In this document: positions 8,008 through 30,595 of the stretch, piece by piece | Position numbering within the stretch: the stretch's first letter is position 1 | Layout: every line of letters starts with the position of its first letter | Source of the DNA: Hellea sp. | GTDB lineage: Bacteria; Pseudomonadota; Alphaproteobacteria; Caulobacterales; Maricaulaceae | Direction of reading: 5' to 3' | DNA: 64,000 nt | Assembly: GCA_020629135.1 (NCBI GenBank) | Contig: JAHDDX010000003.1 | Coordinates: 19,581-83,580, forward strand | Notes under the pieces: model-generated | What the model was told of the DNA's origin: nothing | Databases searched by the model: none | Seen by the model: the letters and a program-made list of their open reading frames with translations, nothing else | Made by a program: the position numbers and the translations under genes

Positions 8008-8009
8008 CT

Positions 8010-14703: not shown

Positions 14704-15870
14704 CTATGCCTCTTGAAGGCCTGAATTGTCTTTGTTCGAAATTCCGTCAATCCAGCTATTTAGTACTGTGCAATCTTTGTCTAAAACGACAAATGTCGCG
14801 GGATTGCCGGGACTAATCTCCCCAATTTTATGATCTAAGCCTAAAAATTCCGCCGGATATAATGAGGCCATATTCAGGGCGGCGGTTAATTTTACGTCGA
14901 GTCGATTAACGGTATTGTGTACGGCAGCGGCCATGTTCAAATCGGAACCAGCAAGGGTACCCTGTTCATCAACACAAACGCCGTTCCTCACCGTGATTTT
15001 CTTGGTTTGCAATTTGAAATTGTCCGTTGGACTTCCAACTGTTGGCATGGCGTCCGTCACAAGGATAAACTTATTCTCGGGTTTGCATCTCATAGCTATT
15101 TTTAGTGCTGTATCTGATACATGATGGCCATCAACGATAATGCCACACCAGCTTTCCTGATTTTCAAGGGCAGCCCCGACAACGCCCGGTTCGCGATTGA
15201 TGAATTGAGACATGGCGTTAAACAAATGGGTAAAGCCGGTGACGCCAGCTTCTAAGGCATCGAACATTCTGTCATAACAAGCGTTGGAGTGTCCTGCCGA
15301 TACCGTTACACCATTCTTGACCAATTTGGTAATTAGGTCATGCGTCGTGTTCTCAGGCGCAAGCGTAACCAGAGTTTTGCCATTCTTAAGAGACGACAAC
15401 AAAGAAACATGTTCCTCATCCAAACGTAGAAATTTGTTGGAATCGTGAACTCCTTTTCGATCTGTGTTTAAAAATGGACCTTCAATGTGAATGCCCAACA
15501 CGCCGGGAACGCCAGCTTCTATCGCTTGATCAACGGCCTTAATGGCTTGCTTAACAACTTCTAAGTCATCACTGATAAGGGTTGGAAGAAATCCGCAAGT
15601 GCCGAACTGACGATGAGCCTGTCCAATCGTTCGGATCGTTTCAACGGTTGGCGCATCGTTAAATAAAACGCCTCCGCCCCCATTCACCTGGATGTCAAAG
15701 AAGCCTGGCGCAACTAAATTTCCCTTTAAGTCAATGATTTCATCTGAAGCGCGCGTGTGCTCTTGAGATTCAAATGAAGAGACAACACCGTTTTCGACAA
15801 CCAGATTTACCCCAGTTTCTAAAAATTTGCGTCCTGTAAAAATACGACCCTTTCCGAAAACTGTACGCAT
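14704..15870 (-). CDS. nagA: N-acetylglucosamine-6-phosphate deacetylase
   Basis: 388 aa. DIQVNGGGG, HIEGPFL, SAGHSNA and THLFNAM motifs. Confidence 0.92.
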   Translation of the reverse strand: MRTVFGKGRIFTGRKFLETGVNLVVENGVVSSFESQEHTRASDEIIDLKGNLVAPGFFDIQVNGGGGVLFNDAPTVETIRTIGQAHRQFGTCGFLPTLISDDLEVVKQAIKAVDQAIEAGVPGVLGIHIEGPFLNTDRKGVHDSNKFLRLDEEHVSLLSSLKNGKTLVTLAPENTTHDLITKLVKNGVTVSAGHSNACYDRMFDALEAGVTGFTHLFNAMSQFINREPGVVGAALENQESWCGIIVDGHHVSDTALKIAMRCKPENKFILVTDAMPTVGSPTDNFKLQTKKITVRNGVCVDEQGTLAGSDLNMAAAVHNTVNRLDVKLTAALNMASLYPAEFLGLDHKIGEISPGNPATFVVLDKDCTVLNSWIDGISNKDNSGLQEA

Positions 15871-16922
15871 TAGAAAGTTTCCGTTACTTTTGACAGATGA
15901 GGCGGTTTGTCAGGGTTGAAACCCCGGGCAACGGATACGCCGTTGACCAGCTTATAGAAGCTCTGAATCATCAATATCGGCTGGATTAATGGATGGGCTT
16001 CCAGTGTTGGCAACGAGGTGCAATCGGGATGATCTACGCCCGCCGTAAAAATATTTGCTCCCATTCTTGCAAGTTTATTGAGGGTCGCTTCGACGCTTCC
16101 GCGGGTTTCATCATTCTGAGAAAATGCCAGAATTGGAAATCCGGGCTCAATAATAGCGGAGGGGCCGTGTAAAACTTCTGCGGCGGAATAGGCCTCTGCA
16201 TGTATACCGCTCGTCTCTTTGAATTTTAGCGCGGCTTCACGGGTGATTCCATACCCGACGCCACGCCCCAAGATGAAAGCGTTAGAAGCTTGTTCAAATG
16301 CGCCAGAAGCCGCACTCCAATCAAGGCTCCATGCTTTTTCCAAACGGTCGGGTAGGGTATTTACGGCATTTAGCAGGTCAAAGTCATTTGTCCAATGTGC
16401 AATGATGAGCACAAGAGCTGCCATCGAGGTAATAAAGGACTTGGTCGCTGCGACACTTTCTTCCGGTCCGGCGCAAAGGTCAATGGTCGCATCTGCGCCA
16501 GCGCCTAAAGCGGAATTTACAGTATTCGTTAGGGCGATTGTATATCCGCCATGCGCCCGTATATTTTTTACCGACGAAACAAGATCCGGGCTTTGCCCGG
16601 ATTGAGAAATAGCGAAGCTGACGATATTTTGTGTATGAAGAGGTGCTTTATAAAGAGAGCTGACAGATAGTCCTGATGGGCTGGTTATTACGCCTTGTAA
16701 TATTTCAATAAGATATCGTCCATATACGCCGGCATGATCTGAACTGCCGCGCCCGACCATCACAGCCACATTTGGGGTCTTTTTTCTGAGTATGGATCCG
16801 ATTCGCGCAAAATCATCACTATGCTTCGCGATTTGTCGGCGGACCGCTTCGGCAGATTCCTTAGCCTCTTGGAACATAAGCGTTTTTTCGGCGATGATCG
16901 CTTTATCTGCGGTGGCCTGCAT
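15870..16922 (-). CDS. SIS-domain glucosamine-6-phosphate deaminase/isomerase (NagB-II type, GlmS C-terminal-like)
   Basis: Two SIS domains (GRGSSDHA, SQSGQSPD). Start placed at ATG 16922, which has an AGGGAG RBS 6 nt upstream. The track start at 16943 has no RBS and overlaps a TATAAT box. Confidence 0.8.
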   Translation of the reverse strand: MQATADKAIIAEKTLMFQEAKESAEAVRRQIAKHSDDFARIGSILRKKTPNVAVMVGRGSSDHAGVYGRYLIEILQGVITSPSGLSVSSLYKAPLHTQNIVSFAISQSGQSPDLVSSVKNIRAHGGYTIALTNTVNSALGAGADATIDLCAGPEESVAATKSFITSMAALVLIIAHWTNDFDLLNAVNTLPDRLEKAWSLDWSAASGAFEQASNAFILGRGVGYGITREAALKFKETSGIHAEAYSAAEVLHGPSAIIEPGFPILAFSQNDETRGSVEATLNKLARMGANIFTAGVDHPDCTSLPTLEAHPLIQPILMIQSFYKLVNGVSVARGFNPDKPPHLSKVTETF

Positions 16923-16941
16923 CGGACGCTCCCTATAATTC

Positions 16942-16947
16942 ATTATA
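16942..16947 (-). promoter_or_regulatory. Candidate -10 box (TATAAT) of the nagB-II/nagA/pgl-like/hex operon, inside the palindrome CCCTATAAT-N2-ATTATAGGG (16931-16950)
   Basis: Consensus TATAAT read on the minus strand, 20 nt upstream of the ATG at 16922. A TGGTATT heptamer (16958-16964, minus strand) sits in the predicted spacer. Confidence 0.35.
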
Positions 16948-16995: not shown

Positions 16996-17013
16996 TGGTA
17001 TTAATATGGTATT
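16996..17013 (+). promoter_or_regulatory. NagQ box: TGGTATT-AATA-TGGTATT
   Basis: Perfect direct repeat of TGGTATT separated by 4 bp, as described for GntR-type NagQ operators. It lies 74-91 bp upstream of the nagB-II start. Confidence 0.65.
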
Positions 17014-17058: not shown

Positions 17059-17796
17059 TTATCCACTAAGCTCAGCGACGAAGTCATAAGTGTCGCCGCG
17101 ATAAAAAGATTGGGCTATCTCAATAATTCGCCCGTCTGTTGCAAACCCTCTTCGCTCTACTAATAGGCCGGGGTCGTTGACGGAGGCATTTAGTAATTCG
17201 GCCTGGTCAGCTGAGAGTAGGACAGCCCTTAATCTTTGTAATGCGCGTGCCGGCCTCAATCCTTCATTGTGTAGAGATTCATAAAGAGAGTCTCCAATGC
17301 TATCGATATTGGGAATGCAATATGCGGGGACGATTGTGTATTCAACAGACATGGGTTCGTCATTGGCATATCTCAAGCGGCTCAGGCGGTAGACTTTAAG
17401 GCCAGGGCTTAGGCCGTAACTCATAACTTCTTCAGGGGTTACGACGCTTTCGGCCTTTTCAAGCCATTTTGAGCTGGGAGTCAGTCCGCGAGAACGCATA
17501 TCCTCTGAAAATGACGTTAAATGAGAGAAGTTTTTTTCAACTCTATTGGCGATGAAGGTTCCTGACCCCTGTCTCCGAGATAGAAGGCCTTCGCGAACCA
17601 GCTCCTCAAGGGCTTTTCGAATTGTTATTCTGGATACGCCAAATAGTTCAGCCATTTCCCGCTCGGCGGGAAGGGGCTTCTCTGGGCTTAGTTGTTCATT
17701 GTCGATCGCACCGCGCAGCTTGCGCTGTAATTGTTTATAGAGTGGTTCACGGCTCGATTCATCAAGCTTGCCTATCACGTCGGCTAGATTATCCAT
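17059..17796 (-). CDS. nagQ: GntR-family (HutC subfamily, UTRA domain) transcriptional regulator of GlcNAc utilisation, NagQ type
   Basis: wHTH region PLYKQLQRKL...LPAEREMAELFGVSRITIRKALEEL plus a C-terminal UTRA-like domain. Start chosen at MDNL (17796, GGGGAA RBS). The track ORF extends to 17844. Confidence 0.82.
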   Translation of the reverse strand: MDNLADVIGKLDESSREPLYKQLQRKLRGAIDNEQLSPEKPLPAEREMAELFGVSRITIRKALEELVREGLLSRRQGSGTFIANRVEKNFSHLTSFSEDMRSRGLTPSSKWLEKAESVVTPEEVMSYGLSPGLKVYRLSRLRYANDEPMSVEYTIVPAYCIPNIDSIGDSLYESLHNEGLRPARALQRLRAVLLSADQAELLNASVNDPGLLVERRGFATDGRIIEIAQSFYRGDTYDFVAELSG

Positions 17797-17986
17797 AAAT
17801 TTCCCCATTTTTGACAATACCAATTTAGTTTCGGCTGTTTTCACTGTCGAATCGATTGGGAAAATGTCTCACTTCAATACCAATGCATATCATTTCCTCT
17901 ATCCATAAGGCCCAAAAGGGTTAAAAACAAGTGTAAATCCAATATTTGTAAGGAAATCGGATCAATATTGGCTTGACATCGGCAAT

Positions 17987-18004
17987 TGGTTCGCTATTGG
18001 TACT
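17987..18004 (+). promoter_or_regulatory. Degenerate NagQ-box-like repeat TGGTTCG-CTAT-TGGTACT upstream of the TonB-dependent receptor
   Basis: Same 7-4-7 architecture with a conserved TGGT core, 88 bp upstream of the ATG at 18092. Single ATTGGTATT heptamers lie on the minus strand at 17816-17822 and 17876-17882. Confidence 0.35.
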
Positions 18005-18091
18005 ATAAACACTGGTAAATGGTGTCTGTTTGGGATGTCGCGACTGAGCGGATATCTGGTATTAAAGGTTACTTTTGAAAGGGGAACTCAA

Positions 18092-20647
18092 ATGAGGTCA
18101 TTTAAGTTTATTTTGGGGGGCACTGTCAGCCTCGCAGCCATTGCGCTAAGCGCGCCGGCCCATGCGCAAGATGCAACCGAAGACGAGGTTATCGTAACAG
18201 GTATTCGCAGCTCGATCGAAAAGGCAGTGGATATCAAGCGTGAAGCGAATTCCATTGTTGATGCGATCACGGCCGAGGATATCGGAAAATTTCCAGATAA
18301 GAACGTTGCCGAATCTTTGCAGCGCGTGCCTGGTATTACTGTGCAGCGTCAATTCGGTGAAGGTGCCGCAGTCGGTATACGCGGTGCAGGGCCAGACCTA
18401 ACACTGACAAATCTGAACGGCCAAAACGTAGCTTCAACCGGTTGGTTTGTTCTTGAGCCAGCCCGTCGCAGCTTCAACTATGAATTGTTGCCGTCTGAGC
18501 TGGTTGGCAGCGTTGAGGTGTTTAAGAGTTCTCAGGCTGATCTGTCCGAAGGTGGCGTTGGCGGTACAGTTATCGTGAACACCCGTCGTCCGCTTGATAT
18601 GGCGAGTAAAAGCATTTTCGCTTCGATTGAGGGTCAGTACCAGGACGATTCAGATAAAATTGATCCGCAGGCTTCTGGTCTTGTGAGCTGGAAGAATGAA
18701 AATGAAACCGTAGGTCTTCTGCTTTCAGGTGTTTATCAAAAACGCCATTTGCAGCGCCAGGGTAACGAGGCGTTTTGGGAGTGGGGTGCAGGTCCTGTTG
18801 CATTTGAACAAGAGCGCGTTCGTACAGCAATTACCGGTGCGCTTCAGTTCAAGCCAAGTGAAAATCTTGATATCCTAATCAACGCCATGAATATGGAAAT
18901 GGAAGCGGACAATACAAATTATGCGCTATGGTTGACACAGGGTAATACCTCTTGGAGCGGCCTGCCGCGTCCGGCAGGAGATTTGCTGAACGGTGAAACA
19001 GCTGTTCGTGGTCCATTAAACGTAGCTTTCTACCAGGCTCGTCCACGCGAAGCGACGATGAAGTCTCGTGTTTTTGATGTGGATGTAAACTACTCCGGTG
19101 ACGATTACGATATCCATCTTCAAGCTGGTCGAACTGAATCAACTGGCGGAACGGATTTCGAAATGGTTCTGGACGATGGTTTGGTGCCAAGCATCAGCGC
19201 GGGATCTTATGACTTTTCTGGCGGTGAGCAAACTTGGAGCCTGCCGTCTGGGTTTAATCCTGCGACCTATGATCCGGGTAGTCTGAACATGGGAACCGGT
19301 CCAAACTTCAACCGGACACCAAAGGAAGACAACGAAACTTACGCTCAGTTCGATATCACCAAAAATGTTGACTATGGTGTGGTGGATTCAATCAAAGCCG
19401 GTGTAAAATACGCCGACCACGAGTCCTCAAGCCGTCGCTATGAATTTACGCAAGCTGCTGGCTTTAATGCCAATACGCCTACAGCAGGTCTGACGGACGG
19501 CACGATTGAGGCCGGTACCGGTAGTGGCAGCTACGATCTTCTGCGTCTCAATGCGGATGCGATTAAAGATTGGGCGCGGGCCAGTATTACGGGTGAAACC
19601 GAAGATCTGGGCTCATTCAGCAATATTGAAGAGAAAAACTTCGCAGCCTATGTAATGGCGAATTTTGATGGAGACGGTTTCCGGGGTAATCTGGGTCTGC
19701 GTTACATTAATACAGACGCGACTTCTAATTACTTCGTAAATGGCGCACCAACGGCAACATCTGCCAGCTATGACGAATGGTTGCCAAGTGCGAACCTGGT
19801 CGTGGATTTGGGTGAAGATTTGATCTTGCGCTCAAGTGCAGCCAGAGCGATTGCGCGTCCACAATATATCGATATGTATGTTAACCCGGATGTTCGCGGT
19901 ACATTTGATGATCTGGCTAATAACCAGTTCTGGATCGTGGGTAATGTCGGACTAAAGCCGTTTATTTCAAATCAGTTTGACATGGGTGTTGAATATTACT
20001 TCAAAGAACGTTCATTGTTCTCGCTGACTGGCTTTATCAAAGACGTCAAAAACTTCGTGAACTTTACAGAATATCAGGCCGCAGCTGCTGATATTCCGTT
20101 CACCCTGCCAACCACACCTGTCAATGAACAGGCCGGCGGTTGGACTGTGCAAGAGAAGTTCAATGGTAAAGATGCTGAAATTTTCGGTTTTGAAGCTCAA
20201 TTGATGTATGATTTTGGAAATGGCTTCGGTACGTTGTTCAACTATACCTACACCGATACCACAACTGACGATGATACATTTGTCGATGGAAACCCAATCC
20301 TTTCTGATAGTTCCAAGCACTCACTGAATGCGTCGGTTTACTATGAGAATGACCGGTTCCAAACACGCGCGTCATATAACTACCGCAGCAAATATATGCT
20401 TCGTGAAGTTGGTGCCTATGGCAACCGTATCCATGACGACTACGGCGTGATTGATCTTTCGGCGAGTTATAACGTGACAGATAATGTCTCTTTGGACCTG
20501 GATGTGAATAATCTGTTGCCAGAAAACTCACGTCAGTTCGGTTATAATGTTAATCCTTCGCCGGAAAGCGGGTTTACCCGCGGTTTCCCACTCTATGAGT
20601 ATGAAACGGCCCGTCGGATTACTTTGGGTGTGTCAGCTAAGTTCTAA
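18092..20647 (+). CDS. TonB-dependent outer-membrane receptor (carbohydrate/chitooligosaccharide type)
   Basis: Signal peptide ending AHAQD, TonB box DEVIVTG, plug-domain motifs (ITAEDIGKFPDKNVAESLQRVPGITV) and a C-terminal ...GVSAKF. Start at ATG 18092 with a GAAAGGGGA RBS. The track ORF starts upstream at 18035. Confidence 0.92.
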   Translation: MRSFKFILGGTVSLAAIALSAPAHAQDATEDEVIVTGIRSSIEKAVDIKREANSIVDAITAEDIGKFPDKNVAESLQRVPGITVQRQFGEGAAVGIRGAGPDLTLTNLNGQNVASTGWFVLEPARRSFNYELLPSELVGSVEVFKSSQADLSEGGVGGTVIVNTRRPLDMASKSIFASIEGQYQDDSDKIDPQASGLVSWKNENETVGLLLSGVYQKRHLQRQGNEAFWEWGAGPVAFEQERVRTAITGALQFKPSENLDILINAMNMEMEADNTNYALWLTQGNTSWSGLPRPAGDLLNGETAVRGPLNVAFYQARPREATMKSRVFDVDVNYSGDDYDIHLQAGRTESTGGTDFEMVLDDGLVPSISAGSYDFSGGEQTWSLPSGFNPATYDPGSLNMGTGPNFNRTPKEDNETYAQFDITKNVDYGVVDSIKAGVKYADHESSSRRYEFTQAAGFNANTPTAGLTDGTIEAGTGSGSYDLLRLNADAIKDWARASITGETEDLGSFSNIEEKNFAAYVMANFDGDGFRGNLGLRYINTDATSNYFVNGAPTATSASYDEWLPSANLVVDLGEDLILRSSAARAIARPQYIDMYVNPDVRGTFDDLANNQFWIVGNVGLKPFISNQFDMGVEYYFKERSLFSLTGFIKDVKNFVNFTEYQAAAADIPFTLPTTPVNEQAGGWTVQEKFNGKDAEIFGFEAQLMYDFGNGFGTLFNYTYTDTTTDDDTFVDGNPILSDSSKHSLNASVYYENDRFQTRASYNYRSKYMLREVGAYGNRIHDDYGVIDLSASYNVTDNVSLDLDVNNLLPENSRQFGYNVNPSPESGFTRGFPLYEYETARRITLGVSAKF

Positions 20648-20675
20648 ACACACTCGGTAAAAAGTGCCCTTGATG

Positions 20676-20708
20676 CGGAACCCCATCTTTTTGGTGGGGT
20701 TCCGTTTG
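20676..20708 (+). terminator. Rho-independent terminator after the TonB-dependent receptor
   Basis: CGGAACCCCA (20676-20685) pairs with TGGGGTTCCG (20695-20704), GC-rich, followed by TTTGT. Confidence 0.75.
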
Positions 20709-20764
20709 TCATTTTAGAATAAGCTGATAAACCCTGTGCGAATTAACCAGATTAGAGAATCCAC

Positions 20765-21460
20765 ATGGCTTTTGTTCCTTTAAATTTTGACGCTCATAAA
20801 TCGCTCAAAGTGAATGAAATTGACGATTACAGTTTTGTTGACACCTCCCATTTATTTCCGTTGACCCTATTTGAGGTCGGGACGCTTGGCCTCGCTTTTC
20901 CTTTGATATTTGTGAAACATGCGGAAACGGGACAGTTCCAGTTTGTCGCCATGACCGGATTGGAACCTGGCAAAAATCTATTTGTAAAAGACGGTAAGTG
21001 GATCGGCGAATATGTTCCAAAAATTTTGGAATGCCGACCATTTCGATTGATGGCAGATCAAAACGATAGCGAATTAATGCATATTGGTATCGATACCGAT
21101 AGCGAGATAGTTTCCCAGAAAAAGGGTGAAGCTATTTTTTCCAAAGATGGTTCGCATACGGAATGGTTTGCCGGCAAAAAAGAGCTACTTTCTGGATATT
21201 ACGAACAGACGCTTCAAACTCAGATGTTTTGCAAGGAACTCGTTAATCTGGATTTATTGAAGGAAAACAGCCTCAGCCTGAATTCCGCTGGCACTCAAAG
21301 AGTTTTAAATTCCATATATCTGATCGATCGCGATAAGCTCGCCGGATTGTCCAATGAAGATTTCTTAGCGCTTAGGGACCGGGGTTTATTGCCTCTGATA
21401 TTTGGTCAAATTGCGTCGCTCGGTAATATCAAAAAACTGGTAGAGCGGGACTATCAATAA
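20765..21460 (+). CDS. SapC-family protein
   Basis: 231 aa with no signal peptide. The N-terminal pattern (FVPLN..H..L...F....H..PL...E......FPLIF..........VAMTGLEPGKNLFV..G.W...YVP...RPF) matches my recollection of the SapC family. Its position downstream of a TBDR is typical for that family. Confidence 0.65.
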   Translation: MAFVPLNFDAHKSLKVNEIDDYSFVDTSHLFPLTLFEVGTLGLAFPLIFVKHAETGQFQFVAMTGLEPGKNLFVKDGKWIGEYVPKILECRPFRLMADQNDSELMHIGIDTDSEIVSQKKGEAIFSKDGSHTEWFAGKKELLSGYYEQTLQTQMFCKELVNLDLLKENSLSLNSAGTQRVLNSIYLIDRDKLAGLSNEDFLALRDRGLLPLIFGQIASLGNIKKLVERDYQ

Positions 21461-21486
21461 ATAAGGTGACGGAAACCACTGCAAAC

Positions 21487-23040
21487 ATGAAGGCATCGAT
21501 AGATAGCATCATAATTGTTGGTGGCGGGACGTCCGGATGGTTGGCGGCCTCACATTTAGCCCGGGTTCTGCGCAAAGACGTAGGCTCTGGTCTTTCTATT
21601 ACCCTCATTGAATCACCCAACATACCAACCATAGGGGTCGGCGAGGGGACGGTTCCGGCCATTCGGAAGACATTGCGGGAATTTGGAATTTCAGAAGATC
21701 GGTTTATCCGCGACTGCGAAGCCACGTTTAAGCAAAGCGTGAAATTTATAGACTGGAAGAATAATCCAGAACCCGACAAACCGGACTATTATCATCATGT
21801 ATTTGACTATCCGGAGTTTAATGGGCTCGATCTGACCCCTTATTGGACCCTGGGAGTTTTGGGGCCAAAATCTTATGCCCACAGTGTGTCTTTGCAGGCG
21901 CATCTTTGTGATGCTGGGATTGGCCCAAAGCGTCCGGATCACAATGATTATGAGGGCTTTGCGAGCTATGCTTATCATTTGGATGCTGCAAAATTTGCGA
22001 ACCTCCTGGCGCAAAATGCCAAGGACAATTTAGGGGTCAAGCATATCCTGGCCGATGTCGATAGCGCTCATATAGATGATAATGGGCATATTAAATCTGT
22101 CTCCCTGTCGGGTGGTCGGCAATTAGAGGCGGACTTTTTCATCGATTGTACCGGATTTCGGTCAATGCTGCTGGGCGATGCTTTAGGCACTGGGTTCATT
22201 TCTAAGAGTGACGAATTACTGACAGATCATGCTGTGGCAATTCAGTTGCCTTATGAAGCTGAAAACACTCCAATACATTGTAACACCATAGCCGCCGCGC
22301 AATCTGCGGGTTGGATCTGGGATATTGGTCTGCAATCACGCCGGGGGTTAGGATATGTATATTCTTCCAATCATATCAGTCATGGTCGGGCTGAAGACGA
22401 ACTTCGGACTTATGTGTCAACGCTTCCCAAACATTTGATGAGAGATGTGCAACCCCGCCGGATTAAAATGCAGATTGGTTACCGGGAGCAGTTCTGGGTT
22501 GGGAATTGCGTTGGCATTGGCTTGTCGCAAGGTTTCGTAGAGCCATTGGAGGCAACGGGTCTTTTAATGTATGATGCAATGTCACGCTTTTTGGCGGATA
22601 TTTTTCCGTCTAGTCGTGAAGAAATTCCATCCGCGCAAAAGCAGTTTAATAATATTGTCCGTGCCAGTTGGGACCGCGTCATCGATTTTATTAAATTGCA
22701 TTATGTAATTACTCAAAGAGACGACACACCGTTTTGGCGCGACAACCAAAATCGGGACACAGTTTCAGATCGTCTTAATGATTGTTTGGAGCGCTGGAGT
22801 TATCGACCACCAAGTGACTATGATTTCGACAGTAAATTCGACGTCTTTAATCAGTATAACTATGCCTATGTGTTATACGGCATGGGGTATGAAACTGATC
22901 TGAATAAGAAGGCGACTAGATTTGATCATGTGCGGCAAGCGCAAAAGCAATCTAAGGATTTTGCTGAGGCAGTTCAAATTGCCGGAGGTAGTTTGTTGAA
23001 ACACAGAGATCTGATTTCTAAGATTACAGCCAGAGTGTAA
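21487..23040 (+). CDS. Flavin-dependent (tryptophan-type) halogenase family protein, paralog 1
   Basis: IIIVGGGTSGW (GxGxxG), GVGEGTVP, TFK (Lys equivalent to PrnA/RebH K79), WIWDIG (WxWxIP with Pro replaced by Gly) and GFVEPLEATG. Homology starts at MKASID (21487). The ORF is open from a GTG at 21466. Confidence 0.85.
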   Translation: MKASIDSIIIVGGGTSGWLAASHLARVLRKDVGSGLSITLIESPNIPTIGVGEGTVPAIRKTLREFGISEDRFIRDCEATFKQSVKFIDWKNNPEPDKPDYYHHVFDYPEFNGLDLTPYWTLGVLGPKSYAHSVSLQAHLCDAGIGPKRPDHNDYEGFASYAYHLDAAKFANLLAQNAKDNLGVKHILADVDSAHIDDNGHIKSVSLSGGRQLEADFFIDCTGFRSMLLGDALGTGFISKSDELLTDHAVAIQLPYEAENTPIHCNTIAAAQSAGWIWDIGLQSRRGLGYVYSSNHISHGRAEDELRTYVSTLPKHLMRDVQPRRIKMQIGYREQFWVGNCVGIGLSQGFVEPLEATGLLMYDAMSRFLADIFPSSREEIPSAQKQFNNIVRASWDRVIDFIKLHYVITQRDDTPFWRDNQNRDTVSDRLNDCLERWSYRPPSDYDFDSKFDVFNQYNYAYVLYGMGYETDLNKKATRFDHVRQAQKQSKDFAEAVQIAGGSLLKHRDLISKITARV

Positions 23041-23044
23041 CCAA

Positions 23045-24553
23045 ATGACCGATAATAAACAGCGATTAATGATTGTGGGCGGTGGATCGGCCGGCTGGAT
23101 GACGGCTGTATATCTCAATCGCGTTTTCAATCATTCCCGACAGAATTTTGAGATCACCGTCATAGAAAGCCCGGATATCGGCGTCATTGGTGTCGGGGAG
23201 TCGACCGTGCACAGTGTCCGGTTTTTCTTTGCCGGAATGGGATTGAATGAACATGAGCTGCTTAAGGCAACCAATGGCAGCTACAAGTTGGGGATCATGT
23301 TTGACAATTGGTGCAAACCGGAAAACGGTCAAATGCACCGCTATTTTCACCCGTTTGAACAAATGCAGTTGGGGGTCGAGCAGGACCTGGCCTCTCGTTG
23401 GATTTTACAAAAATCAACTGACCCCAAACGATATGACCAATGGGTGAGCGCCAGCGAAGCGGTCCTTGCGGCCGGACATGGCCCCAAGGCGGACCAATCG
23501 CCGCAATATCACGGTATCGTCCCTTATGGTTATCACATTGATGCGCTTTTACTCGGACGCTATTTGCGCGAAAAAGGTGTTGAGGCTGGCATAACTCATA
23601 TCGAAGCCACCGTGTCAGATGTCAAAGTTGAGGCTGGTCAAATCAAAGGCGTAGTGACCGATAAAGGTGATTATGATGCCGATTTCTATATTGATTGCAC
23701 CGGGTTTCGAGGCATTTTGATCGAAGCTCTCGGCAAAGATAACTGGCAGAGTTTCAAAGACGCCTTGCCGTGTGATGCAGCCGTTGCCATGCAAAGCCCA
23801 TTGCAATCGGATGAAGTCCCGAAAGCCTGTACAACAGCGACGGCGCTGGATTATGGCTGGGCTTGGAAAATTGATCTGATTAATCGGCGTGGGTTTGGCT
23901 ATGTTTATGACAGTCAATATGTTTCTTCCGATGAGGCGGAACAAGAACTTCGCAAACATGTCGGAGAAGATCGAGAGTTTACCAAAACGGTGCATATGAA
24001 ATTCCGCACCGGGTGCCGAAAGGAATTCTGGGTCGGGAATTGTATCGCAACGGGTTTAGCCGGCGGCTTTATCGAACCGCTCGAATCAACCGGTCTGCAT
24101 TTGATTAATCTGGCCGCGGGTTTAATGGCGACACATTTGACAAGCGGTGACGATATGGAGCCGTCCCGGGCTTCGTTTAACCGATTGATGAATGGCTTCT
24201 ATCAGGATTTGAAACAATTCATCGTCCTTCACTATTGTTTGTCCAACCGCGATGACACCCCGTTTTGGAAGAATGCGCCTAATACGCTGAATGAATGCGA
24301 TTGGTTGAAAAATCAGCTCGAGGTCTGGCGTCACAAAATCTGTGAGTTTCACGATTTGGCGGGCAGTTTCTCAACCACATTTTCGGACGAAAATTACCGC
24401 TATGTCCTTTATGGCATGCAGCATATTCCCGAACTATCTTTGGCGTTAAACCCGGATGACCAGAAGATATTTGAGCAAGCCCAAAAGATACGCGAAACGG
24501 CAGTGTCCCGAACGGAGCCACTTCAATCTTATTTGAAGACTTTGCAATTGTAG
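23045..24553 (+). CDS. Flavin-dependent (tryptophan-type) halogenase family protein, paralog 2
   Basis: LMIVGGGSAGW, GVGESTV, SYK (K79 equivalent), WAWKID (Pro replaced by Asp) and GFIEPLESTG. It starts 4 nt after paralog 1. Confidence 0.85.
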   Translation: MTDNKQRLMIVGGGSAGWMTAVYLNRVFNHSRQNFEITVIESPDIGVIGVGESTVHSVRFFFAGMGLNEHELLKATNGSYKLGIMFDNWCKPENGQMHRYFHPFEQMQLGVEQDLASRWILQKSTDPKRYDQWVSASEAVLAAGHGPKADQSPQYHGIVPYGYHIDALLLGRYLREKGVEAGITHIEATVSDVKVEAGQIKGVVTDKGDYDADFYIDCTGFRGILIEALGKDNWQSFKDALPCDAAVAMQSPLQSDEVPKACTTATALDYGWAWKIDLINRRGFGYVYDSQYVSSDEAEQELRKHVGEDREFTKTVHMKFRTGCRKEFWVGNCIATGLAGGFIEPLESTGLHLINLAAGLMATHLTSGDDMEPSRASFNRLMNGFYQDLKQFIVLHYCLSNRDDTPFWKNAPNTLNECDWLKNQLEVWRHKICEFHDLAGSFSTTFSDENYRYVLYGMQHIPELSLALNPDDQKIFEQAQKIRETAVSRTEPLQSYLKTLQL

Positions 24554-24555
24554 AT

Positions 24556-25686
24556 TTATAACTTGATGAAAATGCGTTTGCGGTAGAGATATAATCCGAC
24601 CGCCCAACTCACGATGACAAAAAGAATTGCATAGGACAGGGATCCCCAAAGAGGGCCGAAGACCGGACTTAGCACAGCGCTATAGATCCAGTTTTGAAGA
24701 GATAGGTCGGGGCCTCCAATCCAGTTCAAATTTATCACCTGTCCGAATAACACCGCCAGGACCCAAGCAAATACATATAGAAATAAAGGATTTGTGCCGT
24801 AAACGATGAAGGGATGAAAGGCTTTCTTGAATTGAAACTTGTCGGCAAAAATCGTAATTGCCGCCAAAGTTACAGCGGCCCAACCTGCGCTGTAGAGAAC
24901 ATATGAGCTGGTCCACAGAGATTTGTTGATTGGGAAAAACATATTCCAGGCCAGGCCGATACCGATCAACACGACGCCTGATGTCAATAGTCTTAAAATC
25001 AAACTGTTCGTCGATGTCTTATGTTTAAATGTCAGGCCAAAACAATAACCAATCAGTACGCTGGCCGTAGCACTGATCGATCCCAAAAGACCTTCAGGGT
25101 CAAACGGAAAACCGAGACCGCCATAGATGTGATTTTCGCCCAGAACCGTCCGGTCAATTGATCCGGCTATATTGGTCGAAGGATCAAAGGGAAGCGAACC
25201 TCCAAATCCCAAAAATATTCCCCAGTATAAAATCAAAATCGTAGCGATGACCGAATATATAATACGACCGCGCCAAAACAGGATTAAAAGGCCGGCCAAA
25301 GCAAAGCATATTCCGATACGTTGCAACACGCCCATTATTCTGAAATTGGCAAGATCCAGATTGTAAAACGGGAAGGCATGCAGCAGCAGGCCGACGAGAA
25401 AAATCAATGCCGCACGTTTCAAAATGGCGCGCCCAGCCAAAAGCTTTGACGTATTCTGATATTTGTCAAAAGAGAAGGACATAGAAATACCCACGGCAAT
25501 CAAAAAGAACGGGAAAATCAGGTCCGTTGGCGTGCATCCATTCCAGGTCGCGTGACGCAGGGGGGCAAGCACATGGTCCCAGCTCCCGGGATTATTAACG
25601 AGAATCATTGCTGCCACGGCGAAACCCCGAAAAATATCCAATGATACAAGACGGGTCTTTTGCGAAACAGCGGAATTCATATTCAA
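24556..25686 (-). CDS. nagX: NagX-type integral membrane protein (heparan-alpha-glucosaminide N-acetyltransferase-like, COG4299/DUF5009)
   Basis: 376 aa with about 10 TM segments. N-terminal RLVSLDIFRGFAVAAMILVNNPGSW...PLRHATWNGCTPTDLIFPFFLIAVG is typical of the family. 4-nt overlap with the upstream kinase gene. Confidence 0.72.
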   Translation of the reverse strand: MNMNSAVSQKTRLVSLDIFRGFAVAAMILVNNPGSWDHVLAPLRHATWNGCTPTDLIFPFFLIAVGISMSFSFDKYQNTSKLLAGRAILKRAALIFLVGLLLHAFPFYNLDLANFRIMGVLQRIGICFALAGLLILFWRGRIIYSVIATILILYWGIFLGFGGSLPFDPSTNIAGSIDRTVLGENHIYGGLGFPFDPEGLLGSISATASVLIGYCFGLTFKHKTSTNSLILRLLTSGVVLIGIGLAWNMFFPINKSLWTSSYVLYSAGWAAVTLAAITIFADKFQFKKAFHPFIVYGTNPLFLYVFAWVLAVLFGQVINLNWIGGPDLSLQNWIYSAVLSPVFGPLWGSLSYAILFVIVSWAVGLYLYRKRIFIKL

Positions 25687-26654
25687 CCGAACTTATCTTG
25701 AAACAAAAATCCGGCCCCGATGAGGGGGGCTTCTTGTCGCGTTAACACCTTAATCGGGACATCCTGGATATAATCTGAAAGTCTATCGCGATTATAAAAC
25801 CGGTTCATCGCTGTTTCCGCCTTAAGAAAGTCAAGCAAACGTTCGCTCACACCGCCTGCGAGAACCGCGCCGCCGCGAGCGCCATGTACCGCGGTAAGGT
25901 CACCGATCGCGCCCATTATGGCGCGGCTTCTGACGCGGCAAAGTTCTTGTGCGATTGGATCGCCGTTATGAGCGCGGGCAATTAACTCGCCCGGCTCAGC
26001 TTTCTGATAGGGAACGTCATTACGTTCACAAATGGCTTCATGCACGTCGTCCATTCCGCGTCCGGAAGCAATTAATTCTAAGGACACAAAGGCATGCTTT
26101 CGATGAAGAATATCAAATAGGGCAAATTCTTCAGGTGTCTGCGGCGGATAGGCCATATATCCACCTTCACCGCTGACAACCTCCCAGCCTTGGCGTGTCG
26201 GGAACAATATGGCTGTACCAAAACCTGTTCCAGGGCCCGCACACAAGACCGGGTGATCGGCCATCGGTTTGCCTTCGGCTATGACGGCGAAATCATCGCC
26301 CGACAAAGCTGGGATAGAGCGGGTCATGGCTCCAAAGTCATGACTGACCAAAACGTTTTCAAAATCGAATCGGGATTTCAGCTCAGATTGTGAAATCCGC
26401 CAGCCTCGACTGTGAACATGAATAGTGTCACCGGTTTTCGGTCCGGCAAAGCCAAAGCTGGCCAGTCGAGGGCGGAATTTCAGTTGAGCAATATACTGGT
26501 CCAGGAGGCCTTCAAAATTCACATTGTGGCTGTCCGAAAACTTAATGAAATCAGTAAGGTGATATGAATAGTCGTCTTTAACCGAGACGAGTCCAAAGCG
26601 CACATTCGTGCCACCAACATCGCAGACGATAATATTGTCAAAGGCGCTTTGCAT
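25683..26654 (-). CDS. Glucokinase-family (Glk/PF02685-like) sugar kinase, probable GlcNAc kinase (NagK-II type)
   Basis: 323 aa with a CDVGGTNVRFGLV phosphate-1 motif and glucokinase-like length. The GlcNAc assignment comes from locus context only. Confidence 0.72.
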   Translation of the reverse strand: MQSAFDNIIVCDVGGTNVRFGLVSVKDDYSYHLTDFIKFSDSHNVNFEGLLDQYIAQLKFRPRLASFGFAGPKTGDTIHVHSRGWRISQSELKSRFDFENVLVSHDFGAMTRSIPALSGDDFAVIAEGKPMADHPVLCAGPGTGFGTAILFPTRQGWEVVSGEGGYMAYPPQTPEEFALFDILHRKHAFVSLELIASGRGMDDVHEAICERNDVPYQKAEPGELIARAHNGDPIAQELCRVRSRAIMGAIGDLTAVHGARGGAVLAGGVSERLLDFLKAETAMNRFYNRDRLSDYIQDVPIKVLTRQEAPLIGAGFLFQDKFG

Positions 26655-26739: not shown

Positions 26740-26757
26740 TGGTATTATAATGGTATG
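26740..26757 (+). promoter_or_regulatory. NagQ box: TGGTATT-ATAA-TGGTATG, plus an extra TGGTATT at 26719-26725
   Basis: 7-4-7 direct repeat in the divergent promoter region between the kinase/nagX operon and the SSF/acs genes. Heptamer starts are spaced 21 and 11 bp apart, which keeps them in helical phase. Confidence 0.6.
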
Positions 26758-28516: not shown

Positions 28517-28552
28517 CTCCCCGATCACCAAGCGACGTATAAGGATATAAGA

Positions 28553-30505: not shown

Positions 30506-30595
30506 TCTTAAGATAATTCTCAAGGCCTGGCCAAAATTCATATTGATCATGGCAGAAATTCAAACCATGTATGGGTTTGAATGGACGAGGTGATT

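Follow-up and report, generated by a model that had tools for sequence, protein, structure and literature searches.

A candidate chitooligosaccharide-uptake operon encoding SapC and two flavin-dependent halogenase paralogs in Hellea sp.

Introduction

Iyer et al. 2010 (PMC2938197) described the neighborhood of a TonB-dependent receptor, SapC, and a halogenase. The recurrence of this triplet, noted in the initial annotation of the present locus, is real and has been known since 2010, and the unit described here is a further member. Omp(Nag) was predicted in Shewanella (PMC2996990), and the motifs of NagQ are tandem repeats (PMC5343134). Among the flavin-dependent halogenases (FDHs), BrvH and the Xcc enzymes of Xanthomonas halogenate indole, not tryptophan, in vitro, and the gene encoding BrvH adjoins a second FDH gene.

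Results

Gene content of the locus

In the window (the whole stretch of 64 kb that was analyzed), four genes encoding the receptor, SapC, Hal1, and Hal2 were found in this order on the forward strand, inside a GlcNAc/chitin locus (Table 1). The intergenic gaps were 117 nt (receptor/SapC), 5 nt (SapC/Hal1), and 4 nt (Hal1/Hal2). The Pfam/TIGR matches and ORF coordinates confirmed that SapC and two halogenase-family paralogs lie downstream of a sugar-type receptor, and the initial annotation held in every detail of genes, motifs, spacing, and context that was checked. The domain scan covered all larger ORFs (about 130 aa or more) at 8010–41373, the stretch 41843–42997, and three ORFs selected elsewhere. 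None of the scanned ORFs, most of which lie within the first 43 kb or so, contained a Flavin_Reduct, NRPS, or PKS domain (Pfam), in agreement with the reported lack of a flavin reductase and NRPS/PKS genes nearby. SapC, Hal1, and Hal2 were said to carry no signal peptide; judged by eye, an N-terminal hydrophobic stretch was absent from all three, and the FAD motif begins at residue 12–19 in the halogenases.

Table 1. Coordinates of genes and candidate regulatory elements in the window
Feature	Position	Strand	Evidence or location
GH20 beta-N-acetylhexosaminidase/chitobiase	11357..13993	-	Glyco_hydro_20 1.3e-94, CHB_HEX, CHB_HEX_C, Glyco_hydro_20b
6-phosphogluconolactonase-like, Glucosamine_iso family, within nag operon	13990..14703	-	PF01182 3.9e-38
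NagA, GlcNAc-6-phosphate deacetylase	14704..15870	-	TIGR00221, 334 bits (cut-off 225.65)
NagB-II-like SIS-domain GlcN-6-phosphate deaminase	15870..16943	-	SIS domain (Pfam); NF046059
Perfect tandem repeat TGGTATT-N4-TGGTAT, candidate NagQ operator	16996..17012	+	upstream of nagB-II operon
GntR/UTRA regulator (NagQ-like), divergent from receptor gene	17059..17844	-	GntR 5.2e-21, UTRA 1e-33
Receptor promoter region, TTGACA then degenerate TGGT(A/T) repeats	17965..18036	+	block conserved with L001
TonB-dependent receptor, carbohydrate type, predicted chitooligosaccharide importer	18092..20647	+	TIGR01782, signal peptide, orthologs
Stem-loop, 13 pairs (8 G-C), T-rich tail, terminator-like attenuator	20675..20715	+	receptor/SapC gap
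SapC-family protein, predicted cytoplasmic	20765..21460	+	PF07277 3.4e-60
Hal1, flavin-dependent halogenase, WxWDIG clade	21466..23040	+	PF04820 (Trp_halogenase) 3.9e-129
Hal2, flavin-dependent halogenase, WxWxID clade	23045..24553	+	PF04820 1.8e-119
NagX-like transmembrane acetyltransferase	24556..25686	-	HGSNAT_cat (Pfam)
Glucokinase-family kinase, presumed GlcNAc kinase	25683..26654	-	PF02685 2.4e-64
Second perfect TGGTATT-N4-TGGTAT repeat	26740..26756	+	between kinase/nagX and SSF/acs operons
Sodium:solute symporter and acetyl-CoA synthetase	26810..30505	+	SSF, AMP-binding/ACAS_N (Pfam)

The surrounding GlcNAc genes were found as annotated (GH20, NagA, NagB-II-like, GntR/UTRA, kinase, and NagX-like), with two of the proteins scoring below their cut-offs: the NagB-II-like protein (314.8 bits against NF046059, equivalog cut-off of 430) and the NagX-like protein (131 bits against NF046061, cut-off of 480). 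The role proposed for NagX was taken from PMC9007349, and the kinase is presumed from its gene position to act on GlcNAc. The 6-phosphogluconolactonase-like gene (125.2 bits against TIGR01198, cut-off of 124.45) occupies the same position in a syntenic locus (L001), and the symporter/acetyl-CoA synthetase pair is also syntenic there. Judged by the candidate operator, this pair probably belongs to the same regulon.

The receptor comprises Plug and TonB_dep_Rec_b-barrel domains (Pfam) and scored 613 bits against TIGR01782 'TonB-Xanth-Caul' (cut-off of 310). A siderophore or haem receptor type was rejected, as those models reached at most 108 bits, under their cut-offs. The receptor ORF opens at 18035, and the start at 18092 yields MRSFKFILGGTVSLAAIALSAPAHA|QD, a classical signal peptide. 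Orthologs of 56–68% identity adjoin GH20/nagA/nagB-II in other genera, including Shewanella, where the predicted Omp(Nag) is the ortholog of this receptor. Conserved synteny and this orthology suggest that the receptor imports chitooligosaccharides across the outer membrane. The AF2 model of SapC was of high score (pLDDT of 96.5 and pTM of 0.89); Foldseek searches of PDB and BFVD gave no match (best E of about 0.1 and TM of at most 0.19 among the matches listed), and a profile search of PDB gave none.

Catalytic motifs of Hal1 and Hal2

Hal1 (517 aa in its database form, with the start probably at the ATG at 21487) shares 36.6% identity with Hal2 across 486 aa. The best solved relatives of Hal1 were 9lu2 (1.5e-145), 2pyx, and 9ltb, none of which carries a named function; those of Hal2 were the Trp 5/6-halogenases 6nsd (3.3e-91), 8fov, 5lv9, and PyrH. 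Both proteins contain GxGxxG, a Lys motif (TFK at 21724–21732 in Hal1 and SYK at 23279–23287 in Hal2), and EPLEATG or EPLESTG, both of which were found in the pair. The Lys/Glu assignments, originally made by eye, were borne out: in a HMMER alignment counted by hand, the Hal1 Lys aligns with RebH K79 and, within EPLE, the second Glu aligns with E357, and in an alignment of Hal2 to Tar14 (6nsd), SYK aligns with TYK and EPLESTG is identical. The catalytic Lys was kept in 93/95 Hal1-type and 65/65 Hal2-type sequences. EPLE was invariant; the next three residues were ATG in 80 of the 95 Hal1-type and STG in 64 of the 65 Hal2-type sequences. The FAD motif was likewise retained by both halogenases throughout the relatives.

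The proline of WxWxIP, described as lost, is absent from both paralogs (WIWDIG at 22312–22329 and WAWKID at 23858–23875), but it was found in 0/95 Hal1-type and 0/65 Hal2-type sequences; its absence is a fixed clade signature (WxWDIG and WxWxID), not decay. For the same 34 genomes, the mean protein divergence was 0.42 (Hal1), 0.39 (Hal2), and 0.50 (NagA). Divergence below that of NagA, with the kept Lys and EPLE, points to purifying selection on both halogenases.

Conservation and pairing

Conservation of the four-gene unit extends to dozens of marine bacteria, and its recurrence in 80 species-level genomes places the arrangement beyond chance. For Hal1 relatives from 80 other species, a receptor was upstream in 73/77 loci, SapC was adjacent in 72/77, a second halogenase was adjacent on the same strand in 57/74, and at least one GlcNAc gene lay within 10 kb in 49/64, counts that are biased toward orthologs since the loci were picked by Hal1 similarity. 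Sister cassettes add genes for a TPR-sulfotransferase (18/80), TauE (12/80), or Cupin_8/JmjC (4/80).

The Hal1 and Hal2 orthogroups are retained together. Their distance matrices gave the highest correlation of ten gene pairs (r = 0.86, bootstrap 0.78–0.91; 0 of 2000 Mantel permutations as high), compared with r = 0.79 for SapC and Hal1; shared ancestry and linkage within the operon act as confounders of these values. Joint retention and the best-correlated matrices make a Hal1–Hal2 partnership plausible.

Promoters and the receptor/SapC stem-loop

A TGGTATT consensus for NagQ reportedly goes back to Yang et al. in 2006. Only two perfect TGGTATT-N4-TGGTAT repeats occur in the 64 kb window, one at the promoter of nagB-II and one at that of kinase/SSF, and L001 has a site identical to the latter at the homologous place. 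At the receptor promoter, the best site has three mismatches to the repeat pattern (two at the homologous place in L001), and the spacer outside the conserved block is mostly poorly conserved.

No promoter-like site was found on the forward strand of the receptor/SapC gap. Across 59 loci, this spacer folded more stably than its shuffles (z < −2) in 93% (median z of −3.35), and 27 of them have a T-rich tail.

Discussion

The best reading, to which we assign a probability of roughly 0.5, is that the unit serves chitooligosaccharide uptake as an operon whose attenuated tail encodes a cytoplasmic halogenase pair and SapC. At the same even odds, the whole explanation places the region as one operon of a GlcNAc/chitin regulon under a NagQ-type GntR repressor. 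Among the points against it, the candidate operator at the receptor promoter is degenerate, with its three mismatches, and the missing WxWxIP proline could change the flavin chemistry. The promoter would drive the receptor gene, and chitooligosaccharides would enter across the outer membrane. The conserved stem-loop may pass only part of the transcription into sapC-hal1-hal2, and SapC, Hal1, and Hal2 would therefore be made in smaller, catalytic amounts. Hal1 and Hal2 appear to be paralogs that diverged long ago and to be catalytically intact two-component FDHs. They would be supplied with FADH2 by a housekeeping flavin reductase and would use it together with O2 and Cl− or Br− to form hypohalous acid, as expected from family chemistry. 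The conserved Lys/Glu pair would guide it to the substrate. The two enzymes are most likely paired, probably as a hetero-oligomer together with SapC, as suggested by co-retention and co-variation.

The acceptor was weighed from the pocket residues. The equivalents of RebH H109 and F111 were kept in 95/95 and 94/95 Hal1-type and in 65/65 and 65/65 Hal2-type sequences, and the position of W466 was Phe in 95/95 Hal1-type sequences. We take the His/Phe pair, with the aromatic at the W466 position in Hal1, to be the residues that sandwich the indole ring in the PrnA/RebH structures. E461 is replaced by K/R/G and F465 by I/V in Hal1, whose loop is shorter by about 11 residues; the roles of RebH Y455, E461, and F465 are given in PMC5945002. 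Hal2 has neither the Trp3 nor the Trp4 motif of Trp-FDHs (PMC8269204). A free-tryptophan halogenase was thus rejected, as Hal1 is without the RebH residues holding the amino acid and Hal2 is without Trp3/Trp4. This supports the earlier view that tryptophan is not halogenated, as far as the free amino acid is concerned, and the orthologs examined lie in receptor-SapC cassettes in glycan loci, none of them in a biosynthetic cluster. No support was obtained for the accompanying proposal of an imported amino sugar as the substrate of the module: the His/Phe pair is invariant, and in a GH2/GH89 locus a close Hal1 relative (50% identity) accompanies a receptor that is not orthologous. Sugars are not known to present an electron-rich site for the HOX chemistry established for FDHs.

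The acceptor is most likely a planar aromatic with an indole-like ring, neither free L-tryptophan nor an imported sugar. Our preference, a tentative one, is for a small indole or phenol-type metabolite, by analogy to the in vitro activity of BrvH and the Xanthomonas enzymes. Hal1 and Hal2 scored 207–245 bits with BrvH/Xcc4156 and 230–310 with true Trp halogenases and are thus no closer to the former, so that it is the pocket residues, rather than membership in a clade, that carry the analogy. A less likely alternative places the aromatic ring on a peptide or protein, as the side chain of a Trp or Tyr residue. With a small indole or phenol-type acceptor preferred, the product in the sister cassettes would be further sulfated or hydroxylated.

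Neither this locus nor any ortholog had a halogenated product, a substrate, a complex, or expression data on record in the literature searched. Among the genes important in S. oneidensis MR-1 on monomeric GlcNAc, those labelled were nagP/A/B/K/R with edd and zwf; SO3512–3514 were not mentioned, so growth on the monomer, at least, may not require the accessory genes. Transposon mutants already exist for these Shewanella oneidensis MR-1 counterparts (SO3512–SO3514), which makes the role of the unit directly testable.

Cassette genes and their surroundings

The four open reading frames (ORFs) described in the initial annotation were found at the same positions, and Pfam confirmed their families as a TonB-dependent receptor, SapC, and two flavin-dependent halogenase (FDH) paralogs, referred to as Hal1 and Hal2. 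Both halogenases matched PF04820 over their full length (431.9 bits for Hal1 and 400 bits for Hal2; cut-off 21), and PF07277 covered residues 6-225 of the 231 residues of SapC with 203.8 bits against a cut-off of 28.9. The receptor belongs to TIGR01782 ("TonB-Xanth-Caul"; 613 bits against a cut-off of 310), and the haem and siderophore receptor models scored at most 108 bits on it, far under their cut-offs. Hal1 and Hal2 are 36.6% identical to each other. The coding gaps are 117 nt (receptor-SapC), 5 nt (SapC-Hal1), and 4 nt (Hal1-Hal2). Read from the ATG at 18092, the receptor has a classical N-terminal signal peptide that ends in APAHA and is followed by QD. The N-termini of SapC, Hal1, and Hal2 were inspected and show no signal peptide, in line with the initial annotation, and the FAD motif of the halogenases begins at residue 12-19. 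No small precursor-peptide ORF fits in the window cassette; the receptor-SapC gap was ruled out as a site for one, as a hairpin fills its 117 nt.

The FAD motif GxGxxG is GGGTSG in Hal1 and GGGSAG in Hal2 and was kept in all 95 Hal1-type and 65 Hal2-type members of the two orthogroups. In a HMMER alignment counted by hand, K89 of Hal1 (TFK) fell on K79 of RebH and the second glutamate of EPLEATG on E357, while the alignment of Hal2 with Tar14 (6nsd) placed SYK on TYK and EPLESTG on EPLESTG. The lysine and glutamate residues that had been assigned by eye were thus upheld, and the reported motif coordinates were all exact. Neither protein carries the WxWxIP motif, which is replaced by WIWDIG in Hal1 and WAWKID in Hal2, both with the tryptophan and isoleucine residues retained.

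The cassette lies within a locus for the use of N-acetylglucosamine (GlcNAc) and chitin. Upstream and divergent are genes for a GntR/UTRA regulator, a NagB-II-like SIS protein, NagA, a 6-phosphogluconolactonase-like protein, and a GH20 chitobiase; downstream are those for a NagX-like protein, a glucokinase-family kinase, a sodium:solute symporter, and an acetyl-CoA synthetase. The NagB-II-like protein scored 315 bits, which is under its equivalog cut-off, and NagA scored over its own. The 6-phosphogluconolactonase-like gene stands between the GH20 gene and nagA, reached 125.2 bits on TIGR01198 (cut-off 124.45), and occupies the same place in L001, a syntenic metagenome scaffold. The symporter and acetyl-CoA synthetase genes stand beside nagX and the kinase gene, after a perfect NagQ-type repeat, and are syntenic in L001. 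It has been speculated that Acs supplies acetyl-CoA to the NagX transacetylase (PMC9007349); this locus would fit that idea or a recycling of the acetate released by NagA.

No Flavin_Reduct, NRPS, PKS, or tryptophan-pathway gene was found among the larger ORFs of 8010-41373 and 41843-42997, and three other selected window ORFs had no Flavin_Reduct, NRPS, or PKS domain either, so that the earlier statement on the absence of a flavin reductase and of NRPS and PKS genes stands among the genes scanned. The loci examined around related cassettes likewise had no flanking NRPS, precursor-supply, or exporter genes by Pfam and similarity labels. A ferredoxin-reductase-type flavoprotein is encoded after acs; it was considered as a linked reductase of the halogenases and rejected, being probably unrelated to them because it is missing from the syntenic scaffold. 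The other scanned window genes are housekeeping genes (LptD, IspDF, lipoyl synthase, an acetoin/2-oxoacid dehydrogenase complex, and NtrY). The hutU and hutH genes, which are unrelated to the cassette, flank the nag locus upstream. A single tRNA was the sole Rfam match in the window, and no second cassette was found within its 64 kb.

Features of the window and of related loci (positions in related loci carry the locus name)
Feature	Position	Strand	Family or match
TonB-dependent receptor	18035/18092-20647	+	Pfam Plug 6.1e-17; TonB-dependent barrel 1.2e-42
SapC	20765-21460	+	PF07277 3.4e-60
Hal1	21466-23040	+	Trp_halogenase PF04820 3.9e-129
Hal2	23045-24553	+	Trp_halogenase PF04820 1.8e-119
tRNA	7921-8004		Rfam
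hutU and hutH	within 7921-11273	-	urocanase; histidine ammonia-lyase
6-phosphogluconolactonase-like gene	13990-14703		Glucosamine_iso family
Perfect repeat before nagB-II operon	16996-17012		TGGTATT-N4-TGGTAT
Stem-loop 3' of receptor gene	20675-20715		
nagX and kinase genes	24556-26654		
Perfect repeat before symporter/acs operon	26740-26756		TGGTATT-N4-TGGTAT
Symporter and acetyl-CoA synthetase genes	26810-30505		
Ferredoxin-reductase-type flavoprotein	30581-31822		Pyr_redox_2 + Reductase_C
Accessory-gene site	L064:13071-15589		
Accessory-gene site	L057:13103-14494		
Accessory-gene site	L054:11500-12927		
Accessory-gene site	L074:12301-14433		
Accessory-gene site	L083:12343-13362		
Accessory-gene site	L072:13120-14040		
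Asparaginase gene after SapC	L054:15457-16554		Asparaginase_2
Asparaginase gene after SapC	L068:13446-14483		Asparaginase_2
Single-halogenase cassette, Thalassotalea sp. ND16A	L049:408-12532		

Conservation of the cassette across species

The cassette is an ancient, strongly constrained orthologous unit of a chitin-sugar uptake locus in at least 70 species. A similarity search with Hal1 returned at least 7957 significant relatives, and a pattern scan of one genome per species gave 516 Hal1 relatives, of which the best 80 were used. Neighborhoods were counted by tblastn with the window proteins on these loci. The survey was anchored on Hal1, as the SapC family is too divergent, and orthologs are over-represented in the counts because the loci were chosen by Hal1 similarity. 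The 80 loci span Colwelliaceae, Thalassotalea, Microbulbifer, Cellvibrionaceae, Rheinheimera, Shewanella, Ferrimonas, Alteromonas, Pseudoalteromonas, Paraglaciecola, Woeseiaceae, and the alphaproteobacterial Kordiimonadales.

Neighborhood counts for loci chosen by Hal1 similarity
Element	Loci
Receptor at most 5.5 kb upstream, same strand	73/77
SapC adjacent	72/77
Second halogenase adjacent, same strand	57/74
Hal2 orthogroup present	52/64
At least one of GH20/nagA/nagB-II/nagX within 10 kb	49/64
At least two of GH20/nagA/nagB-II/nagX within 10 kb	42/64
TPR-containing Sulfotransfer_3/1 gene	18/80
TauE-family permease	at least 12/80
Cupin_8/JmjC gene and second sulfotransferase	4/80

These neighborhood statistics bore out the recurrence of the receptor-SapC-halogenase triplet that the initial annotation had described. 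Most loci have a receptor that is orthologous too (56-68% identity). Genes are arranged as receptor-SapC-Hal1-Hal2, except in Colwelliaceae and Thalassotalea, where the two halogenases are swapped (receptor-SapC-Hal2-Hal1). The closest Hal1 relative (63% identity) is on the fully syntenic L001, an ENA metagenome scaffold on which protein identity to the window ranges from 39 to 85% along the locus. No species-representative genome had a Hal1 with more than 55% identity in the best 80 of the 516 loci, and the source organism seems to have no sequenced close relative in the collections searched. The contexts of the orthologs examined are receptor cassettes, mostly beside glycan-utilization genes, which agrees with the earlier view that the halogenases do not belong to biosynthetic clusters.

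Sister cassettes differ in the optional genes they have next to the halogenases and in their neighbors. The optional partners are tailoring enzymes (sulfation and hydroxylation) needing cytoplasmic cofactors, and some loci of the Rheinheimera type have a second, stand-alone SapC. In Thalassotalea sp. ND16A, a cassette with a single halogenase combines SapC, a non-orthologous receptor of 989 aa (29% identity), and a Hal1 relative of 50% identity with neighboring genes for a GH2 beta-galactosidase and a GH89 alpha-N-acetylglucosaminidase. Other cassettes adjoin PGI/pgl and Asparaginase_2 genes or Entner-Doudoroff genes. Since cassettes also stand beside such other glycan and sugar genes, the module is not confined to nag operons. 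The Asparaginase_2 gene directly follows SapC in Pseudoalteromonas cassettes; the Asparaginase_2 family takes in glycosylasparaginases, which hints at N-glycan or GlcNAc-Asn substrates for the Pseudoalteromonas type of receptor.

Candidate operators and possible read-through

Perfect copies of TGGTATT-N4-TGGTAT occur at only two sites in the 64 kb, one of which precedes the nagB-II operon, while the other separates the kinase and nagX genes from the symporter/acs operon and has an identical copy in L001. In the spacer between the regulator and receptor genes, a block of the form TTGACA … TTGGT-N4-ATTGGTA … GGTAAATGGT is conserved with L001, and most of the remaining spacer is poorly conserved. 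This block is a degenerate version of the repeat, with three mismatches to the pattern in the window and two in L001. Yang and colleagues reportedly gave TGGTATT as the NagQ consensus in 2006. NagQ operators are tandem repeats (PMC5343134), and the receptor cassette is likely co-regulated with the nag genes through these candidate NagQ-type operators.

The stem-loop 3' of the receptor gene has 13 pairs and a T-rich tail, and no promoter-like site was found after it. The receptor-SapC spacer (median 117 nt) was more stable than its shuffles (z < -2) in 93% of 59 related loci, and a T-rich tail was present in 27 of these 59 spacers. The conserved stem-loop and the lack of a promoter after it suggest that the accessory genes are transcribed by reduced read-through.

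Constraint and catalytic residues of the halogenases

Mean protein divergence over the same 34 genomes was 0.35 for the receptor, 0.39 for Hal2, 0.42 for Hal1, 0.50 for NagA, and 0.58 for SapC. The catalytic lysine was retained in 93 of 95 Hal1-type and all 65 Hal2-type sequences, and EPLE was invariant in both groups. The segment after EPLE is ATG in 80 of the 95 Hal1-type sequences (ATA, ASA, or SCA in the rest) and STG in 64 of the 65 Hal2-type sequences. Judged by these divergences and residues, Hal1 and Hal2 look catalytically competent and under strong constraint. Two of the 95 Hal1-type sequences have asparagine for the catalytic lysine (TFNQ), and 15 have alanine for the halide-site glycine; such proteins may be inactive or altered partners.

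The proline of WxWxIP was found in none of the 95 Hal1-type and none of the 65 Hal2-type sequences, which instead read WxWDI(G/A/S) and, in 63 of 65, WxW(Q/E/K)ID, respectively. The proline reported earlier as lost is indeed absent, but its absence is a fixed clade signature, because it is missing from every member of both groups. It is also missing from the best PDB matches to Hal1 (9LU2, 1.5e-145; 2PYX, 6.1e-116; 9LTB, 3.1e-112). The best solved relatives of Hal2 are the tryptophan 5/6-halogenases Tar14 (6nsd), 8fov, Th-Hal, and PyrH, with E-values from 1e-87 to 1e-91.

A proposed aromatic acceptor other than free tryptophan

In the PrnA and RebH structures, residues of the H109/F111/W466 type are taken here to sandwich the indole ring. 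The Hal1 equivalents of RebH H109 and F111 were kept in 95 and 94 of the 95 orthologs, the W466 position was phenylalanine in all 95 Hal1-type sequences, and H-x-F was retained in all 65 Hal2-type sequences. RebH contacts the amino and carboxylate groups of tryptophan through hydrogen bonds from Y455, E461, and F465 (PMC5945002). Tyrosine was found at the Y455 position in the window Hal1 and in 79 of 95 relatives, and the E461 position was K in the window Hal1 and K, R, G, or T in the orthologs, with F465 replaced by I or V. The tryptophan-binding loop of Hal1 is approximately 11 residues shorter than that of RebH. Hal2 has neither of the Trp3 and Trp4 motifs, QG(A/K)Q being HGI and YYHGLPPYS being SFSTTFSDE, and these motifs distinguish Trp-FDHs from non-Trp FDHs (PMC8269204). 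The stacking residues were thus kept and the residues holding tryptophan changed, which points to a planar aromatic acceptor other than free L-tryptophan and counts against a sugar. The earlier proposal that these proteins do not halogenate tryptophan agrees with this, as neither the amino/carboxylate-binding positions in Hal1 nor Trp3/Trp4 in Hal2 are conserved.

Possible pairing of the halogenases, and the SapC fold

Protein distance matrices of the cassette proteins from 34 genomes were compared by a mirror-tree analysis, in which the correlations are confounded by linkage. The highest correlation was that between Hal1 and Hal2 (r 0.86; bootstrap 0.78-0.91; Mantel 0/2000), followed by SapC-Hal1 (r 0.79), and the weakest within the cassette was receptor-Hal1 (r 0.65). 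The Hal1-Hal2 value exceeded that of receptor-Hal1 in 99.9% of bootstraps and that of SapC-Hal1 in 91.5%. When NagA was controlled for, the partial correlations were 0.78 (Hal1-Hal2) and 0.63 (SapC-Hal1). These values are consistent with a Hal1/Hal2 pair acting with SapC, and the suggestion that the halogenases form a pair stands as a possibility.

An AlphaFold2 model of SapC, built from an alignment of 64 sequences, reached a pLDDT of 96.5 and a pTM of 0.89 and shows an alpha/beta fold with a long central helix. Foldseek found nothing like it in the PDB (best E 0.1 and TM at most 0.16 among the matches listed) and no match in BFVD, and a profile search of PDB sequences with SapC gave no match. 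SapC is a member of a large family (PF07277; 3692 representatives at 50% clustering), and its fold is confidently predicted and has no solved relative in these searches. Its invariant or nearly invariant polar residues include H11, E37, K51, N71, T152, Y213, and S218. A cupin/JmjC-like enzyme was rejected as an identity for SapC on the basis of the modelled fold and of the Foldseek searches. SapC may act as an enzyme, an adaptor, or a substrate.

Comparison with known systems

Iyer, Abhiman, de Souza, and Aravind described this neighborhood in 2010 and proposed a halogenated siderophore-like product (NAR; PMC2938197). The cassette is a well-conserved new instance of that neighborhood. As in their description, the receptor, SapC, and tryptophan-halogenase homologs with an intact lysine are adjacent and co-directional in the window. 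The described neighborhoods have the same gene set; their halogenases, one to three in number, retain the Rossmann fold and the chloramine lysine. The neighborhoods occur sporadically among alpha- and gammaproteobacteria and come in variants with or without a JmjC/2OG dioxygenase. The window cassette differs in that it has no JmjC or 2OG gene, its receptor is of the TIGR01782 type and not siderophore-like, and the unit is an orthologous part of a GlcNAc/chitin locus under NagQ-type repeats.

Hal1 shares WxWDI(G/A) and EPLEAT/S with 9LU2 ("L11-2 putative tryptophan halogenase"), 2PYX (structural genomics), and 9LTB. The literature searched yielded no description of 9LU2, 9LTB, or 9LUQ, and it mentions 2PYX only as an unpublished entry. 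Hal1 and Hal2 share with PrnA, RebH, PyrH, Tar14, and Th-Hal the PF04820 domain, GxGxxG, K79, E346/E357, and the His/Phe pair that stacks on indole; unlike in these enzymes, the WxWxIP proline is replaced and the positions binding the amino and carboxylate groups of tryptophan are not conserved. Unlike bona fide tryptophan halogenases, they have no biosynthetic cluster or dedicated reductase gene among the scanned genes.

BrvH and the Xanthomonas campestris enzymes Xcc4156, Xcc1333, and Xcc4345 were also annotated as tryptophan halogenases but are inactive on tryptophan and halogenate indole (indole-brominating), and they resemble Hal1 and Hal2 in missing the residues for the amino-acid part of tryptophan. 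A second FDH gene, 42.7% identical, lies immediately upstream of brvH. BrvH keeps WxWxIP, and its halide-site glycine is replaced, as it is in the Xcc enzymes; Hal1 and Hal2 show the reverse. BrvH and Xcc4156 scored 207-245 bits against Hal1 and Hal2, more distant than true tryptophan halogenases, so that membership of the BrvH/Xcc "group C" clade was rejected for both proteins and only the likeness of the pockets was retained. MibH, the tryptophan chlorinase of the lanthipeptide NAI-107, is an FDH of the tryptophan-halogenase family that accepts only peptide-bound tryptophan, and the authors of the BrvH study use it as a structural analogue for open pockets. It is encoded in a RiPP cluster with a precursor peptide, whereas the window cassette has no precursor gene.

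TonB-dependent transporters for GlcNAc and chitooligosaccharides of the Omp(Nag)/NagA/Nix type occur in Shewanella, Caulobacter, and Xanthomonas, and those of Caulobacter and Xanthomonas have experimental transport data; the studies on them left the SapC and halogenase genes undiscussed. The window receptor is 59-62% identical to Shewanella nag-locus receptors of the Omp(Nag) type, the outer-membrane transporter predicted for the Nag pathway in the Shewanella sugar-pathway reconstruction (PMC2996990), a paper in which "halogenase" occurs 0 times. In S. oneidensis MR-1, SO3513 ("tryptophan halogenase, putative") comes after the receptor gene SO3514, and transposon mutants of SO3512-SO3514 exist. 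The genes labelled among those important on monomeric GlcNAc in the MR-1 fitness paper are nagP/A/B/K/R, edd, and zwf, and not SO3512-SO3514. Colwellia CPS_3734 (halogenase) and CPS_3737 (receptor) were reported to be co-upregulated in one metatranscriptome. No assignment of a function to these genes and no report of their induction by chitin or GlcNAc were found in the literature.

Proposed model and alternative explanations

The anatomy of the cassette is shown by the results above, and the chemistry, the acceptor, and the purpose are inferred. In the model proposed here, the receptor would take up chitooligosaccharides, the tail of its operon would be attenuated, and Hal1 and Hal2, with SapC, would form a cytoplasmic halogenase whose acceptor is aromatic but neither tryptophan nor a sugar.

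The acceptor could be a protein. SapC, Hal1, and Hal2 would then halogenate a tryptophan or tyrosine side chain of a cytoplasmic protein (most obviously the receptor precursor before Sec export, or SapC) and thereby tune the transporter, with the JmjC-type hydroxylase and the TPST-like sulfotransferase of sister cassettes adding further modifications. This is possible but unlikely. The receptor and SapC are the only proteins always co-encoded with the halogenases, the window cassette has no room for a precursor peptide, and the pocket retains the indole-stacking residues and has lost those gripping a free amino acid. The Cupin_8/JmjC and TPR Sulfotransfer_3 genes of sister cassettes point the same way, the JmjC branch being treated as peptide modifiers by Iyer et al. 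(PMC2938197), as does the open pocket of BrvH, likened by its authors to MibH. On the other side, the receptor and Hal1 are the most weakly coupled pair of the cassette, and the sub-stoichiometric enzymes implied by the attenuator are compatible with protein tailoring without being specific to it. Many TIGR01782 receptors also have no cassette, the family description giving approximately 20 paralogs per Xanthomonas genome against three named halogenases of X. campestris. No halogenated outer-membrane protein is known to have been reported, which also counts against a protein acceptor. A defined form of this idea, in which the three proteins make up a cytoplasmic complex for post-translational halogenation of an aromatic protein side chain (most simply one of the receptor precursor or SapC), are joined in sister cassettes by JmjC-type hydroxylases and TPR-sulfotransferases, and include SapC as a specificity or scaffold subunit with a new fold, seems to us quite unlikely.

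The initial annotation had the module act on an imported amino sugar or oligosaccharide-derived compound. Such a compound would be modified in its catabolism, with N-chlorination of GlcN or its oxidative deamination as examples. The tight placement of the module in the GlcNAc locus and regulon, the GH20, nagA, or nagB-II genes near most close Hal1 relatives (49/64 loci), and the replacement of a proline said to prevent mono-oxygenase activity would all suit this reading. We nevertheless consider it improbable, as the NagA/NagB-II/kinase route is already complete in the locus, the invariant His/Phe sandwich indicates an aromatic ligand, and cassettes occur outside nag loci, including that of the 50%-identical Hal1 relative with its non-orthologous receptor in a GH2/GH89 locus and those beside PGI, Asparaginase_2, or Entner-Doudoroff genes. 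FDH chemistry is directed at electron-rich carbons, and SO3512-SO3514 are missing from the genes labelled important on GlcNAc in MR-1. Little credence is likewise given to the view that Hal1 and Hal2 have given up halogenation and work as flavin mono-oxygenases or oxidases, or else serve uptake as non-catalytic partners or regulators. The WxWxIP proline, a proposed block on mono-oxygenase chemistry, is replaced throughout both clades, the scanned genes include no flavin reductase gene, and two Hal1-type sequences have lost the lysine; but the lysine and glutamate needed only for halogenation are otherwise kept, together with the halide-site S/A-T-G segment, and both proteins are more conserved than NagA. 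In addition, FDHs are normally supplied in vitro by housekeeping flavin reductases (for example, PMC9801302). The reading of Iyer and Aravind from 2010, a halogenated siderophore-like metabolite derived from an amino acid and imported by the adjacent receptor, was given for exactly this combination of a TonB receptor, SapC, and one to three tryptophan halogenases with or without JmjC (PMC2938197), and the catalytic residues are intact. It is very improbable for this locus, since the receptor type and its place among nag genes under NagQ-type repeats count against it, and no NRPS, precursor-supply, or exporter gene was found in the scanned window genes or the cassette flanks examined.

Implications

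Marine Gamma- and Alphaproteobacteria have very large numbers of genes annotated "tryptophan halogenase" next to TonB-dependent receptors, and ocean surveys count them as halogenation or natural-product potential, although none has a known substrate. The pocket of Hal1 and Hal2 still appears to be built for an aromatic ring. Together with the conservation of the cassette in the chitin-sugar uptake locus, this makes a loose association directly testable in the tractable S. oneidensis MR-1 (SO3512-SO3514). If the acceptor is a protein or an uptake-linked metabolite, the halogenases would represent a new layer of glycan acquisition biology, and if a small metabolite is halogenated instead, polymer feeding would be linked to chemical defence or signalling. 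For marine and plant-associated Proteobacteria, a tailoring complex, if true, would be a previously unknown post-translational halogenation coupled to glycan uptake.
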